Shown: positions 45,916 through 49,028 of the stretch, in pieces
Position numbering within the stretch: position 1 is the first letter of the stretch
How the letters are laid out: each line of letters starts with the position of its first letter
Source: an uncultured Phycisphaerales bacterium
Lineage (GTDB): Bacteria; Planctomycetota; Phycisphaerae; Tepidisphaerales; Tepidisphaeraceae
DNA: 64,000 bases
NCBI GenBank assembly: GCA_963844715.1
Contig: CAWJPJ010000006.1
Coordinates: 512,001 to 576,000 of the forward strand
Reading direction: 5' to 3'
Made by a program: the position numbers and the translations under genes
Notes under the pieces: generated by a model
What the model was told of the DNA's origin: nothing
Databases searched by the model: none
The model's input: only the letters and a program-made list of their open reading frames with translations

Positions 45916-46776
45916 ATGCCCGCGCCGGCCATCAATATCCTCCACATCACCACCAACGAACACACCGCAATCTTCGACGACCTCCTCGAACTCCTCACCG
46001 ACACGCTCGAGCAACTCGGCCATGCCGTGCAGCGGACGACAACTCATTTCGACCGCAGCCGCATCAACATCCTCGTCGGCCACACGGCCGCTCTCGAAAA
46101 AGAAGCCTACGACTCCATCCGGAGCAGCGGCGCGAAATACATCATCTTCCAAATGGAGACCCTCACCGACCGCCCCGGCATCCCGCGCCCGTCGCAGGCT
46201 TATCTCGACGTCCTGTCCCATGCCAACCAAGTCTGGGATTATTCGAAAAACAACCTGGCGTTCCTGGCCGCCCGCGGCTGCCGCGATTTGCAATTTATTC
46301 CCCTGGGCTATTCCCGCCGCCTCGAACGAATCGCGCATGCGGAACAAAAAGACATGGACGTCCTCTTCTACGGCGCCGGCAACGCACGCCGATTGAAAAT
46401 CGTCGATGCCCTCCGCGCCCGCGGCTTGCGCGTCGACGCCTTCTTCAAAGCCTACGGCTCCGCCCGCGACCAGGCCATCGCGCGAGCCAGGATCGTTCTC
46501 AATCTGCACAAGTTCGACCATTCAGAATTGGAACAGGTGCGCATTTCGTACCTGTTGAACAATCGCGTTTTCGTCATTTCCGAATCAGCCGAGGGAAACC
46601 CCTGGGGGGATGGCGTCGTCTTCAGCGACTACGACAAAATCGTCGATTGCTGCGTCGAATCTGCCCAGCCCGGCAAAGACGCCGCCCGCGTAGAAATCGC
46701 AACAAAGGGCTATGAGGCCCTAAAATCATTGCCGATCGGCGCGAGCCTCGAGGCCGCGCTCGCAAGGATCCAGTGA
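45916..46776 (+). CDS. Glycosyltransferase-like (GT-B) protein
   Basis: VWDYS, DVLFYG..RR, IARARIVLNLH, EQVRISYLLNN..VISE. Confidence 0.65.
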   Translation: MPAPAINILHITTNEHTAIFDDLLELLTDTLEQLGHAVQRTTTHFDRSRINILVGHTAALEKEAYDSIRSSGAKYIIFQMETLTDRPGIPRPSQAYLDVLSHANQVWDYSKNNLAFLAARGCRDLQFIPLGYSRRLERIAHAEQKDMDVLFYGAGNARRLKIVDALRARGLRVDAFFKAYGSARDQAIARARIVLNLHKFDHSELEQVRISYLLNNRVFVISESAEGNPWGDGVVFSDYDKIVDCCVESAQPGKDAARVEIATKGYEALKSLPIGASLEAALARIQ

Positions 46777-46779
46777 GAT

Positions 46780-46808
46780 TTGACGCGACCGACGGAGGGA
46801 AGTAGCCT
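46780..46808 (+). promoter_or_regulatory. Sigma70-type promoter of the tRNA-Pro/GIY-YIG locus
   Basis: TTGACG (46780-46785), 17-bp spacer, TAGCCT (46803-46808). Confidence 0.65.
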
Positions 46809-46827
46809 GCTCATCCGGAAGTTTTTC

Positions 46828-46877
46828 CGGGGCGTGGCGCAGTTTGGTTTAGCGCGGTCGCTGCGGCGACAGGCCGC
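46828..46877 (+). other. 5' pseudo-tRNA-Pro with anticodon arm replaced by GTCGC-tgcg-GCGAC
   Basis: cggggcgtggcgcagtttggtttagcgcg matches the tRNA 5' part; followed by the hairpin and aggccgc. Confidence 0.85.
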
Positions 46878-46915
46878 TTTTCCGCAGGAGGCTCAGTTCG
46901 TTGTGACTTTATTTC

Positions 46916-46992
46916 CGGGGCGTGGCGCAGTTTGGTTTACGCGCGCTTGACTGGGGGTCAAGAGGTCGCAGGTTCGAATCCTGTCGCCCCGA
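46916..46992 (+). tRNA. tRNA-Pro(GGG)
   Basis: cggggcg/cgccccg acceptor stem, cttga-ctGGGgg-tcaag anticodon arm, ggttcgaatcc; one extra C at 46940 is probably an error. Confidence 0.93.
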
Positions 46993-46993
46993 T

Positions 46994-47233
46994 TTGTTTC
47001 ACCTATACGTCTTGCGAAGCCAGAAAACCGGCCGCAGATATGTCGGCTCGTGCGAGGACATCATCAACCGCCTTGATCAGCACAACCGTGGCGAGTCCAA
47101 ATCCACCAGACACGGCGTGCCCTGGAAATTGATCCACCACGAAGAATATGCGACCCGAGCGCAGGCAACGCAGCGAGAACGATATTTCAAAACTGGAAAG
47201 GGCCGAGAGGAACTCGACCACCTCAAGGTTTAG
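46994..47233 (+). CDS. Small GIY-YIG nuclease (UPF0213/SLX1-like), copy 1
   Basis: LYVLRS..YVGS..RLDQHN.G..KSTR..PWKLI..EE..A..RERYFK; TTG start inferred. Confidence 0.88.
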   Translation: MFHLYVLRSQKTGRRYVGSCEDIINRLDQHNRGESKSTRHGVPWKLIHHEEYATRAQATQRERYFKTGKGREELDHLKV

Positions 47234-47282
47234 CGCGGTCGCCGCGGCGACAGGTCGCAGGTTCGAATCCTGTCGCCCCGAT

Positions 47283-47522
47283 TTGTTTCACCTATACGTC
47301 TTGCGAAGCCAGAAAACCGGCCGCAGATATGTCGGCTCGTGCGAGGACATCATCAACCGCCTTGATCAGCACAACCGTGGCGAGTCCAAATCCACCAGAC
47401 ACGGCGTGCCCTGGAAATTGATCCACCACGAAGAATATGCGACCCGAGCGCAGGCAACGCAGCGAGAACGATATTTCAAAACTGGAAAGGGCCGAGAGGA
47501 ACTCGACCACCTCAAGGTTTAG
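47283..47522 (+). CDS. Small GIY-YIG nuclease, copy 2
   Basis: Identical to copy 1, offset by 289 bp. Confidence 0.88.
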   Translation: MFHLYVLRSQKTGRRYVGSCEDIINRLDQHNRGESKSTRHGVPWKLIHHEEYATRAQATQRERYFKTGKGREELDHLKV

Positions 47523-47571
47523 CGCGGTCGCCGCGGCGACAGGTCGCAGGTTCGAATCCTGTCGCCCCGAT

Positions 47572-47745
47572 TTGTTTCACGTATACGTCTTGCGAAGCCA
47601 GATAACTGGCGGCCGATACGTCGGGTTCTTGCGAGGACTACGCCGCCCGCCTTGATCAGCACAACCGAGGCGAATCCAAGTCGACCAGACATGGCGCGCC
47701 CTGGAAATTGGTCTACCAGGACGAATATACGACCCGGCCAGCGCG
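47572..47745 (+). pseudogene. GIY-YIG nuclease copy 3, diverged and truncated
   Basis: FHVYVLRSQITGGRYVG / SCEDYAARLDQHNRGESKSTRHGAPWKLVYQDEYTTR, then abuts the stop codon of the next gene. Confidence 0.8.
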
Positions 47746-48768
47746 TCAGAATCCGCTCAAAGTTACTTTCCCGATTGCCTTGCCGCTCTCCGATATGGCG
47801 TGGGCCTTCTTCAGGTTTTCGACATTGATGGGGCTGAGTGTCTGCGTCTGCGTGGAGCGCACTTCGCCTCGGTCAACCAGGTCTGAGACGCGAGTGAGCA
47901 GTCGTCCTTGCTCGGCCATATCCGGTGTCTGCCACATCGAGCGGGCGAACATGAACTCCCAGTGAAGCGATGCCGATTTTCGCTTTAGCGGCACTACGTC
48001 CAGCGATTCCGGATCATCGATCAGTCCAACCTTTCCCTGCGGAGCCAGAACTTCGATCAATTGCGGAAAGTTCCGTGCGGTCGCCGTCAGGCTGGCGATA
48101 TATTTCACCGGAGGGGCGGCCAGCGCCTTCACCTGGTCGGCCAGCGGTTTGGTGTGATCGACCACATGGTGGGCGCCCATTTCAGTCACCCATCGCACCG
48201 TTTCCGGCCGCGATGCAGTTGCGATGACGGTCAGCCCCGTGAGCCGCCGCGCCAGTTGCAAAAGGATTGATCCCACGCCGCCCGCGGCTCCGCTGACCAG
48301 CAAAGACGCGCCGCTGTCGCCCTCGCGAACCCCAAATCGATCGAACAATAACTCCCAGGCGGTGATGCTAGTCAGCGGCAGCGCGGCGGCTTCGGCGAAG
48401 CCGATCGATTTGGGTTTGCGTCCCACCAGCCGTTCGTCCACCGCCTGATATTCCGCATTTGATCCGGGACGATCCAGTTCGCCGGCGTAGTAGACTTCAT
48501 CTCCGACCGAGAACCCACTCACGGCGGCGCCTTTGCCTACGACGACGCCTGCCGCATCCCACCCGAGCACACGCGGCTTCCCCGCGACGGGCGACGCCGA
48601 GCCTTGATGCCGCGCGCCGCGTACTTTCGTATCAACCGGATTCACCGAAACCGCCCGCACCGCAACCAGCAAGTCGCGCGGCCCCGGCTCCGGCCGAGGC
48701 AGATCCATCTCCACCAGCGAATCCTGGACCTCAAGCGGCCCCGGCCGAGTAAAGGCAATCGCTTTCAT
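47746..48768 (-). CDS. Zinc-binding alcohol dehydrogenase family (quinone oxidoreductase-like)
   Basis: SVNPVDTK, LGWDAAG, ALPLTSITAWE, GAAGGVGS, SLHWEFMF. Confidence 0.92.
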   Translation of the reverse strand: MKAIAFTRPGPLEVQDSLVEMDLPRPEPGPRDLLVAVRAVSVNPVDTKVRGARHQGSASPVAGKPRVLGWDAAGVVVGKGAAVSGFSVGDEVYYAGELDRPGSNAEYQAVDERLVGRKPKSIGFAEAAALPLTSITAWELLFDRFGVREGDSGASLLVSGAAGGVGSILLQLARRLTGLTVIATASRPETVRWVTEMGAHHVVDHTKPLADQVKALAAPPVKYIASLTATARNFPQLIEVLAPQGKVGLIDDPESLDVVPLKRKSASLHWEFMFARSMWQTPDMAEQGRLLTRVSDLVDRGEVRSTQTQTLSPINVENLKKAHAISESGKAIGKVTLSGF

Positions 48769-48945: not shown

Positions 48946-49015
48946 GTCGCCCCGATTTGTATCACTTCCACTTCCCGCGACGCCAGACAACCGGCCGCAT
49001 CGTAGCGCGGGTCGC
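48946..49015 (+). repeat. Degenerate, internally deleted fourth copy of the tRNA/GIY-YIG unit
   Basis: gtcgccccgatttgt.tcac..gcga.gccaga.aaccggccgca, then tagcgcgggtcgc (unit end). Confidence 0.75.
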
Positions 49016-49028
49016 GTTTTAGTTCGAC

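Follow-up and report, generated by a model that had tools for sequence, protein, structure and literature searches.

The closest known system to the locus described here is the Ssn family of nucleases (PMC11893778). SsnA of Neisseria meningitidis is a 94-aa single-domain GIY-YIG protein and a hairpin-dependent nuclease of single-stranded DNA (Chenal et al. 2025, PMC11893778). The Ssn enzyme binds the NTS hairpin in single-stranded DNA and cuts just upstream of it, and the NTS-ssnA-NTS layout has been termed IS-like (PMC11893778). Chthoniobacter flavus and Opitutus terrae are each listed with a cd10448 homolog in Supplementary data 4 of that paper, and the word 'tRNA' occurs 0 times in its main text. 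Other minimal GIY-YIG proteins, the UPF0213/Slx1-like group (BH0048, 1zg2; EF2693, 1ywl), have, according to the accessible text of an earlier survey, an unknown function and a vertical mode of inheritance (Dunin-Horkawicz et al. 2006, PMC1564403). In the same portion of that survey the only tRNA link of the group is fusion to a TrmH-like methyltransferase, and adjacency to tRNA genes is not mentioned. GIY-YIG genes near tRNA genes are represented by the free-standing homing endonuclease SegB of the phage T4 tRNA cluster, according to the accessible part of its description a phage-encoded site-specific endonuclease that leaves mostly 2-nt 3' overhangs (PMC2330249). Our literature search found no paper on small GIY-YIG genes abutting bacterial tRNA genes.

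A locus in the window, the whole 64,000-nucleotide stretch of DNA analysed here, belongs to a family of miniature elements attached to tRNA genes that is widespread but has been little described. Its parts are as follows.

46780..46808, plus strand: candidate tRNA-operon promoter (TTGACG, 17 nt, TAGCCT), picked out by eye and absent from the consensus scan
46828..46873, plus strand: upstream pseudo-tRNA, U (direct repeats D5 and D4; hairpin listing)
46916-46992, plus strand: intact tRNA-Pro(GGG) (ARAGORN; Rfam tRNA, 58.4 bits, E 1.1e-11; cloverleaf as minimum free energy fold)
46994..47233, plus strand: GIY-YIG nuclease ORF, copy 1, 79 aa, TTG start, TAG stop at 47231-47233 (Pfam PF01541)
47227..47281, plus strand: downstream pseudo-tRNA, F1 (sequence, direct repeats, hairpin listing)
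47283..47522, plus strand: GIY-YIG ORF, copy 2, same as copy 1 (ORF list, repeats)
47516..47570, plus strand: pseudo-tRNA F2, with palindrome at 47527-47540 (repeats, hairpin listing)
47572..47736, plus strand: degenerate ORF, copy 3, 83-93% identical, with an in-frame stop and an indel (repeats, translation)
48946..49016, plus strand: isolated relic, an internally deleted cassette beyond the dehydrogenase gene (sequence comparison)

The locus is a tandem array. Tandem Repeats Finder gave a 289-nt period with 2.7 copies (46963-47736). Each unit holds, in order, a tRNA 3' half, the ORF, a D-arm piece and a 14-nt palindrome in the place of the anticodon arm. Units 1 and 2 match each other at 100% identity, their number being as given by the assembly. 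The tandem period also shows that the further starts proposed in the initial annotation, at 47283 and 47572, are genuine, the latter belonging to the degenerate copy. In copy 3 the in-frame stop follows 27 codons, and the copy breaks off close to the 3' end of a convergent dehydrogenase gene (47746-48768, minus strand). The relic on the far side of this gene retains a tRNA 3' end (GTCGCCCCGA) and ~45 nt from the beginning of the ORF, which are followed by TAGCGCGG and a portion of the hairpin.

Partial tRNA copies lie on both sides of the gene. Upstream, U comprises the tRNA-Pro 5' acceptor strand and D arm, the palindrome GTCGCTGCGGCGAC (46857-46870), which replaces the anticodon arm, and AGG, and is followed by ~39 nt of unrelated sequence. 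Direct repeat D5 joins 46824-46851 to 46912-46939 at 100% identity, and D4 joins 46846-46877 to 47227-47258 at 94%. Downstream, F1 comprises the D-arm piece GGTTTAGCGCG with the stop codon, the palindrome GTCGCCGCGGCGAC (47238-47251), which stands for the anticodon arm, and the tRNA 3' half (47252-47281). The pseudo-tRNA pieces showed no significant fold (z -1.4 to +0.9) and no covariation support. The palindrome 3' arm plus AGG could pair with CCUGUCGCC in the 3' half, but L003 does not preserve this pairing, which was dropped. The idea that the 5'-half and 3'-half copies form a split tRNA or anneal in trans found no support and was rejected. Several crossover, homing and staggered-cut schemes that would derive the upstream 5'-half and downstream 3'-half relics from one event were considered, and none of these fits all loci. 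ARAGORN labelled one hairpin-tRNA 'tRNA-Ser'.

The initial annotation had both ends of the ORF defined by tRNA sequence, and this is confirmed. The intact tRNA-Pro(GGG) has no encoded CCA, and its D loop carries one C more than the relatives' (GGTTTACGCGCG). The sequence then reads GTCGCCCCGA (ending at 46992), T (46993) and TTG, which places the start codon (46994-46996) one base past the discriminator. The open frame 46922..47233 has this TTG in phase (46994-46922 = 72), and the N-terminus is not much further downstream because the Pfam match spans profile positions 2-73 of 78. The stop TAG (47231-47233) falls within the D-arm-derived GGTTTAGCGCG (47227-37), which in relatives is D-loop/D-stem sequence of tRNA-Pro(GGG). 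Setting of both ORF ends by tRNA-derived sequence is conserved across related loci. GGAG, GAGG and AGGA are absent from the 23 nt before TTG 46994, as expected from the earlier claim that no Shine-Dalgarno sequence (SD) precedes the start. A consensus scan of 46600-47900 returned 0 promoter-like and 0 terminator-like sites, and an Rfam search of 46500-48000 at E up to 1 matched tRNA only. The candidate promoter at 46780..46808 lies upstream of every tRNA-like part. Because a promoter and SD of its own are absent, the ORF would have to be co-transcribed with the tRNA.

The encoded protein is a conserved member of the GIY-YIG nuclease family. Its translation from 46994 matches Pfam GIY-YIG (PF01541) with E 9.6e-13 and 48.7 bits (cut-off 22.6), and the domain takes up residues 2-70 of the 79 aa of this single-domain protein. 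Seven residues are invariant in 18 homologs (Y5, Y16, G18, R26, H30, E62 and K66), and they include the catalytic Tyr/Tyr/Arg/His/Glu. The nuclease ORF is under purifying selection, with dN/dS of 0.06-0.2 overall (window versus L002, 0.14; L018 versus L039, 0.063). A profile of the 18 homologs, compared with structures, matched UPF0213 proteins best (1zg2, 3.3e-14; 1ywl, 5.5e-13) and then SLX1 (5e-8). The best solved relatives of the window protein are UPF0213 proteins, not Ssn, and like them it is a minimal domain without auxiliary domains. PHROGs matched in 0 families, NCBIfam gave nothing beyond a sub-threshold group I intron endonuclease match, PADLOC gave only weak homing-endonuclease-like matches, and tblastn against plasmids at 1e-5 gave no match. 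SegB is larger and has a separate DNA-binding part; unlike such endonucleases, the window protein is the 79-aa catalytic domain only. The window and SegB share a GIY-YIG nuclease gene among tRNA genes, and selfish inheritance through DNA cleavage and repair would be a further likeness, while the SegB locus is, in the accessible text, without tRNA pseudo-copies or a hairpin (PMC2330249). The likeness to Ssn lies in size (single-domain GIY-YIG, ~80-95 aa) and layout (PMC11893778).

The palindrome also has a counterpart in Ssn. It lies on both sides of the gene (46857-70 and 47238-51), with a further copy at 47527-40, and the identical 14-mer is found in the window and at 9 tRNA-Pro loci (L002, L003, L018-L020, L022, L024, L039 and L040). 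Exact or near-exact copies number 14 in the genome. On contig C6, 9 were observed versus 0, 0 and 0 in Markov simulations. Outside the locus, 4 of the 11 copies stand within ~100 nt downstream of tRNA(-like) 3' ends with no ORF. As in Ssn, a GC-rich palindromic hairpin thus flanks the gene on both sides and is also dispersed in the genome, GTC stands at or beside the hairpin 5' edge, and the layout is IS-like. GTC opens every hairpin class on the tRNA-sense strand. Similar proteins do not always go with the same hairpin class: L021 encodes a protein 59% identical to that of the window, yet has a TCCGCC...GGCGGA hairpin. By analogy with Ssn, the palindrome is most likely the nuclease's own recognition hairpin. 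Several features are unlike Ssn. The published SRM degenerate motif had 0 matches in 142,818 nt searched on both strands (window region and 52 related loci), so that the window hairpin is outside it. The hairpin stands in for the anticodon arm within partial tRNA copies, the gene lies directly beside a tRNA and takes its stop from tRNA sequence, and the genome carries 14 hairpin copies, not hundreds.

The same layout (intact tRNA, ORF, D-arm piece, hairpin, tRNA 3' half) recurs at Pro(GGG), Pro(CGG), Pro(TGG), Asn, Arg(ACG) and Met tRNAs in Chthoniobacterales, Acidobacteriota and Sedimentisphaerales. At each locus, the tRNA-derived flanks agree with the resident tRNA. A variant with a 42-nt leader occurs at a tRNA-Ser (metagenome locus L042). 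The mirrored order (pseudo-tRNA 5' half, hairpin, ORF, intact tRNA) is also found, for example at the tRNA-Ser of an Ignavibacteriales MAG (L023). One copy sits inside a 23S rRNA intervening sequence (L006/L007). Locus scans with a single protein gave 9 and 7 loci.

A search with the window protein gave the close-relative set, 30 loci besides its own. In 13-14 of the 30, a tRNA or pseudo-tRNA 3' end lies 0-27 nt before the start: an intact tRNA in 10 (0-23 nt) and a pseudo-tRNA in a further 3-4 (1-10 nt). Spacers of 0-1 nt with TTG or GTG are seen in the window and in L002, L004, L008, L013 and L026. These loci cover Pro(GGG), Pro(TGG) and Asn, and their proteins are only 37-72% identical. Because the same abutment recurs at other tRNAs and in other genomes, it is not due to chance. 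The stop is a D-loop TAG in the window and 9 loci (L002, L003, L008, L020, L021, L022, L024, L039 and L040), an anticodon-loop TAA in 4 (L013, L026, L067 and L075), and neither in 2 (L018 and L019). The proposed tie between start codon and tRNA end, checked on homologs, holds for a narrow subclade; it does not extend across the phylum, where the gap is 30 nt or less in only 2 of 69 loci. There, 57 of the 66 loci with an assigned start codon use ATG, and most loci either have ATG with a leader of ~40-170 nt or lie upstream of the tRNA. A tRNA or tmRNA lies within 200 nt on the same strand in 31 of the 69 phylum-sample loci and on the opposite strand in 0. Homologs are carried by 155 of 401 genomes of the phylum, at 0-11 copies per genome.

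Occupancy also differs between relatives at one site. The tRNA-Pro(GGG) gene is occupied in G000 and G001 and unoccupied in 9 relatives, including the same-genus G002, which has a tandem cassette at Pro(CGG) instead. Such presence and absence at homologous sites is like that of free-standing homing endonucleases. Between G000 and G001, the Pro(GGG) ORF has diverged about as much as purD (dS 1.35 versus 1.2), which points to long vertical residence rather than recent mobility. The orientation of the tRNA relative to its neighbours is inverted between G000 and G002 and the G001 contig stops at the tRNA; insert boundaries are not fixed by synteny.

We propose that the ORF is the nuclease gene of a ~290 bp miniature cassette living on a tRNA gene. 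This full explanation, which joins nuclease, hairpin, tRNA copies and recombination, is in our judgement probably correct. The cassette would have three parts: a single-domain GIY-YIG nuclease of the bacterial Slx1-like/UPF0213/Ssn kind, which would act on single-stranded DNA; the GC-rich palindrome, most likely the recognition hairpin by analogy with Ssn-NTS pairs; and partial copies of the host tRNA, with the palindrome in place of the anticodon arm. It would be built on a partial tRNA duplication, the ORF filling the gap between a tRNA(-like) 3' end and the next D arm. This would be why the start abuts the discriminator and the stop is a D-loop TAG. With no promoter or SD of its own, the cassette may be transcribed as a tRNA trailer. 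Hairpin nicking, with tRNA homology on both sides, would lead to local recombination, by which the cassette may be mobile. Such recombination would explain how copies are amplified in tandem and converted, how relics arise and how the cassette now and then reaches a different tRNA gene.

The abutment may also bear on expression. In mitochondrial tRNA punctuation with leaderless messages, a reading frame opens no more than one base past the tRNA 3' end, with no SD. The window ORF likewise begins within one base of the tRNA 3' end and has no SD; unlike the mitochondrial case, it lies on a bacterial chromosome, has a non-AUG start, and its processing is putative. Cleavage of the CCA-less tRNA precursor just past the discriminator, by RNase Z or a similar enzyme, would yield an mRNA with a 1-nt leader for leaderless translation, and the nuclease level would follow tRNA maturation. 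ORF expression that depends on tRNA processing would add to the cassette explanation, not replace it. Judged from position, it is plausible for a narrow subclade only, and we regard it as possible, a tentative suggestion. The 0-1 nt TTG/GTG spacers of the window and the loci named above are consistent with it, as are the lack of SD in spacers, the lack of a promoter-like site between tRNA and ORF, and the longer spacers where CCA is encoded (9 nt in L021, 11 nt in L040). At least 64 of the 74 tRNA genes of the genome lack an encoded CCA, which fits endonucleolytic 3' cleavage, and their trailers usually open with T. Twenty sequencing runs were matched as Logan contigs, the RNA runs with only 4% of the sampled words. 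An RNA-library contig from a relative joins 5' half, hairpin, 3' half and ORF start, possibly through DNA carry-over. Against such processing, a TTG preceded by a single nucleotide makes a weak leaderless start, and so does a GTG with an extra 5' base. ORF copy 2 would not be releasable like copy 1 because the pseudo-tRNA before it lacks the 5' acceptor strand, and the ORFs of L013, L018 and L039 also follow pseudo-tRNAs without an acceptor stem. The best RNase Z match reaches 79 bits versus a curated cut-off of 293, in an 85%-complete genome. The ATG starts, longer leaders and upstream positions of the phylum-wide homologs likewise argue against it.

The ORF could instead be a domesticated host gene, not now mobile. 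It would carry out Ssn-type restriction of palindrome-bearing single-stranded DNA, for example controlling transformation or recombination, with the tRNA operon serving only as a site of low, constitutive expression. Neisseria SsnA does modulate transformation (PMC11893778), and purifying selection, purD-like divergence at the same tRNA and low-copy dispersal of the palindrome would all suit a resident gene. We nevertheless consider this rather unlikely: the patchy distribution (155 of 401 genomes, 0-11 copies each), partner tRNAs that vary between close relatives, tandem identical copies, decayed copies, ORF-less relics and the copy within a 23S rRNA intervening sequence all argue against it.

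The cassette explanation has a bolder form. The ~290 bp cassettes would be the smallest autonomous mobile DNA units yet seen, made up of a nuclease specific for single-stranded DNA, a hairpin and borrowed tRNA homology. Hairpin nicking and recombination would carry them from one tRNA gene to another, each time with a functional tRNA restored, and they would be expressed purely via tRNA transcription and 3' maturation, with near-leaderless translation and the D-loop TAG as universal stop. We think this bolder form doubtful, and distinctly unlikely as a whole.

In a further alternative, modelled on type III toxin-antitoxin systems, the nuclease would be directed at tRNA and the hairpin pseudo-tRNAs would serve as its RNA decoys or antitoxins. 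Tandem pseudo-tRNA arrays upstream of the gene in L008 and L021 could be read in this way, and so could the RNA-library contig. GIY-YIG enzymes are DNases, however, SsnA is inactive on RNA (PMC11893778), the pseudo-tRNA fold has no covariation support, and PADLOC yields just the weak homing-endonuclease-like matches, all of which makes this alternative highly improbable. That the tRNA fragments are attL/attR leftovers of integrase-mediated islands, with the ORF as incidental cargo, is almost certainly wrong: an intact target tRNA with a displaced 3'-half copy at the far end is, in the accessible text of Islander, the classic signature of tRNA/tmRNA-targeting islands (PMC4383910), but the 289-bp unit holds the GIY-YIG ORF only, no integrase lies in or near it, the fragment also includes D-arm sequence and has a palindrome where a tRNA has its anticodon arm, there are upstream relics of the 5' half, and the same design recurs at many tRNAs, always with a GIY-YIG nuclease.

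Repair-like annotations are attached to thousands of small 'hypothetical GIY-YIG' genes. The window locus and its relatives indicate that many of these genes belong to tRNA transcription units that also hold tRNA copies disrupted by hairpins. This links the Ssn single-stranded DNA nucleases with the question of how tRNA-gene fragments and pseudo-tRNAs, which can mislead annotation, arise. The family may offer a bacterial case of tRNA-punctuated gene expression, and it would be a source of natural nuclease-hairpin pairs, with new specificities for single-stranded DNA tools.

The GIY-YIG nuclease ORF lies between tRNA-derived sequences at both ends and recurs in a tandem cassette. The locus comprises:

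46916–46992, + strand: tRNA-Pro(GGG) (ARAGORN; Rfam tRNA model, 58.4 bits, same span)
47238–47251: perfect palindrome GTCGCCGCGGCGAC, 3′ of the stop, in the anticodon-arm position
47252–47281: exact duplicate of the final 30 nt of the tRNA, then T, then a second TTG
Upstream of the tRNA: pseudo-tRNA made of a duplicate of the tRNA's first 24 nt together with 4 bases of its flank, then D-stem, near-identical palindrome GTCGCTGCGGCGAC (46857–46870) and AGG
48946–49016: internally deleted cassette relic, on the far side of a convergent zinc-dehydrogenase gene

A single T (46993) follows the 3′ end of tRNA-Pro(GGG), and the next bases read TTG (46994–46996), in frame with the open frame 46922..47233. 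The 79 residues from this TTG match the Pfam GIY-YIG profile (E 9.6e-13) from profile position 2, so the protein must start at TTG 46994 or no more than a few codons away. The TAG stop (47231–47233) falls within GGTTTAGCGCG, the tRNA-Pro(GGG) D-loop/D-stem sequence of relatives; the window's own tRNA has one additional C there. Tandem Repeats Finder gave a 289-nt unit in 2.7 copies (46963–47736), the exact copy number being as assembled. Copies 1 and 2 are identical, and copy 3 is 83–93% identical and stop-interrupted. The initial annotation had placed the start 1 nt past the tRNA, the stop in D-loop-derived sequence and a TTG start again in each repeat. These placements are borne out. A consensus scan of 46600–47900 found no promoter or terminator. 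The sole promoter candidate, a weak TTGACG-17-TAGCCT (46780–46808) picked by eye, lies upstream of all tRNA-like parts.

Compared with L029, a locus in the same-genus genome G002, tRNA-Pro(GGG) (46916–46992) is flipped relative to purD/orfX. The flip points to a rearrangement that has one of its breakpoints at the tRNA. Outside the window, about 25 tRNA genes are packed into 2.8 kb of the window's genome (G000 C6:953276-956065), with one odd 2-nt 'anticodon' call; this looks like a tRNA array unit.

The window protein was searched against 40 relatives, species-representative genomes and metagenome contigs, giving 30 loci outside the window's genome; the unpublished genome G004 underlies none of the claims made here. 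In 10 of these the ORF starts 0–23 nt 3′ of an intact same-strand tRNA.

Layouts of the homologous loci (tRNA, spacer, start codon)
L002: Pro-GGG, 1 nt, GTG
L003: Pro-CGG, 5 nt, ATG
L004: Pro-TGG, 0–1 nt, TTG
L008: Asn, 0–1 nt, TTG
L019: Pro-TGG, 6 nt, ATG
L020: Pro-GGG, 23 nt, ATG
L021: Arg-ACG (Acidobacteriota MAG), 9 nt after CCA, ATG
L025: Met, 16 nt, GTG
L026: Asn (Sedimentisphaerales MAG), 0 nt, TTG
L040: Pro-CGG, 11 nt after CCA, ATG
L013, L018, L039 and broken L022 (n = 3–4): start 1–10 nt after a pseudo-tRNA 3′ end
L005, L009, L014, L042, L044 (n = 5): 42–152-nt leader after a tRNA or tmRNA
L006, L007 (n = 2): within a 23S rRNA intervening sequence
L023, L041, L045 (n = 3): ORF upstream, intact tRNA 3′ of it
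L010, L011, L015, L017, L024, L043 (n = 6): partial, or without detected tRNA

A trio recurs 3′ of the ORF, consisting of a D-arm piece, a GC-rich hairpin (5–7-bp stem, short loop) and a tRNA 3′ half. On sequence comparison, the tRNA-derived pieces agree with the resident tRNA in every case. The ORF ends at the D-loop TAG in the window and in L002, L003, L008, L020, L021, L022, L024, L039 and L040, and at an anticodon-loop TAA in L013, L026, L067 and L075; L018 and L019 are exceptions. Upstream 5′-half and hairpin relics also occur in other loci; in L008 and L021 two or three of them stand in a row. The tRNA-abutting cassette is thus a recurrent arrangement and no local oddity, and its partial tRNA duplications leave one tRNA intact.

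Two other contexts were seen. The ORF at L006:1468-1725 (−) and L007:1501-1725 (+) / L047 interrupts a 23S rRNA gene in its 5′ domain, between inverted repeats ...cccagcacctatttta / taaaataggtgctggggg, and looks like an ORF-bearing intervening sequence. At L011 (G013:C56) the family domain lies within a 755-aa open frame, which may be a fusion protein.

We built a profile of 18 homologs and applied it (E up to 1e-10) to 401 genomes sampled from the phylum. A homolog is present in 155, with up to 11 copies in one genome. Among the 69 top-scoring loci from genomes other than the window's (29 plus a further 40 in score order), a same-strand tRNA or tmRNA ends within 200 nt upstream at 19, begins within 200 nt downstream at 14, and lies on either side at 31; none of the 69 has an opposite-strand tRNA within 200 nt. 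These counts make the tRNA-gene association a trait of the family. An upstream gap of at most 30 nt occurs at only 2 of the 69 (L075, L096), and ATG accounts for 57 of 66 assigned starts. The abutting start is therefore characteristic of the narrow subclade to which the window protein belongs. A third layout (tRNA-Ala(GGC) or tmRNA, structured ~140-nt leader, ORF) is found at L060, L065, L068, L070 and L073, and the window's genome has it at a further locus (C6:428880-429400, −), its protein ending ...KRHF(L). The leader is conserved among L060, L065, L068 and L070, opening 'gactccgcgcg...' or 'gacttcgcag...'; the L073 and C6 leaders have different sequences with a comparable long-range stem. 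L074 (tRNA-Pro(GGG)) has this spacing and protein type, but its leader is dissimilar by eye.

Tyr5, Tyr16, Gly18, Arg26, His30, Glu62 and Lys66 are invariant in an 18-homolog alignment. The closest solved relatives are the UPF0213 proteins 1zg2 and 1ywl, with SLX1 next. Nei-Gojobori dN/dS is 0.14 for the window against L002, 0.063 for L018 against L039, and 0.06–0.2 for the remaining unsaturated pairs except L002 against L042 (0.33). These comparisons mark the ORF as a conserved, predicted minimal nuclease under selection. Since dS between the tRNA-Pro(GGG) ORFs of the window's genome and same-genus G001 (1.35) is near that of purD (~1.2), the cassette has probably resided there since the two species split. 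In nine relatives, G002 among them, the same tRNA is unoccupied and runs into ordinary flank or a terminator. The G002 tandem cassette is located at tRNA-Pro(CGG) instead, and in the window's genome that tRNA is followed by a D-arm and palindrome relic without an ORF. The distribution is patchy, multi-copy and multi-tRNA, with relics.

The hairpin travels together with the nuclease gene. The window's exact 14-mer accompanies the Pro-type cassettes of L002, L003, L018 (three copies), L019, L020, L022, L024, L039 and L040; hairpins elsewhere read TCCCGAC..GTCGGGA, TCCCGGC..GCCGGGA, TCCGCC..GGCGGA and similar. GTC opens every class on the tRNA-sense strand. Allowing a C/T variant, the 14-mer occurs 14 times in the window's genome. 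Nine copies are on contig C6, for which three second-order Markov simulations gave 0, 0 and 0. Of 11 out-of-locus copies, 4 follow a tRNA(-like) 3′ end at a distance of no more than about 100 nt.

Several further hairpin contexts were noted. ORF-less palindromes at G000 C3:48440-48640 and C8:269020-269300 share flanks (acagag-palindrome-cgRtctactg) directly 3′ of tRNA-Ser-like ends; ARAGORN missed the C3 tRNA-like sequence. A second palindrome (ATGCGCC gg GGCGCAT) lies in the pseudo-tRNA T loop of L040 (~41 nt past the ORF), L022, L024 and L018, with an apparent 5-bp duplication, TCGAA, and looks like an inserted tiny palindromic element. At L063 (oriented ~1430-1497) hairpin TCCCGACttgtGTCGGGA is repeated three times immediately 5′ of the ORF start, and its 3′ arm gives GGGAG, a possible SD, 8–12 nt 5′ of the ATG. 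The ARAGORN 'tRNA-Ser(GGA)' at L072 (oriented 1296-1379) is a tRNA-Asn copy with hairpin GTCCGCCGGAGGCGGA replacing half the anticodon arm, and L005 1292-1381 is possibly of the same kind. Hairpin-tRNAs can thus pass as tRNAs in annotation.

The nearest described system is Ssn. SsnA is a 94-aa single-domain GIY-YIG protein (cd10448) that binds the NTS hairpin repeat in ssDNA, cuts upstream of it and is inactive on dsDNA and on RNA; GTC, the three bases preceding the palindrome, governs cutting (PMC11893778). Ssn homologs mostly have NTS-like repeats on both sides, which its authors call IS-like. Its Supplementary data 4 records a cd10448 homolog in Chthoniobacter flavus with SRM not enriched (0.96-fold), and a term search of its main text returns no 'tRNA'. 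A scan for SRM, the published motif of Ssn repeats, found no match in 142.8 kb of window region and related loci. At best the cassette hairpins are a divergent class of Ssn-type repeat. Bacterial minimal Slx1-like proteins are regarded as vertically inherited, and a TrmH fusion is the only tRNA link noted for them in the text of Dunin-Horkawicz et al. (2006, PMC1564403) that treats them. Our literature searches found no published account of tRNA-abutting bacterial GIY-YIG genes.

The abutting layout bears on expression. The initial annotation proposed that cleavage after the tRNA discriminator frees a near-leaderless nuclease mRNA, coupling expression to tRNA maturation. In its favor, spacers of 0–1 nt recur at unrelated tRNAs, longer spacers go with an encoded CCA, and at least 64 of 74 tRNA genes in the window's genome are CCA-less. 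The best RNase Z match in this 85%-complete genome scores 79 bits, below the curated cut-off of 293. This reading is weakened by the TTG start codons, by ORFs that follow pseudo-tRNAs without an acceptor stem, and by the absence of the layout from most family members; we regard such cleavage as possible rather than probable. We favor a cassette in which the ORF would be expressed by read-through from the tRNA promoter and the hairpin would be the nuclease's putative ssDNA site. Nicking beside the hairpin, with tRNA homology on its flanks, may then lead to gene conversion, to tandem amplification and, now and then, to transfer.
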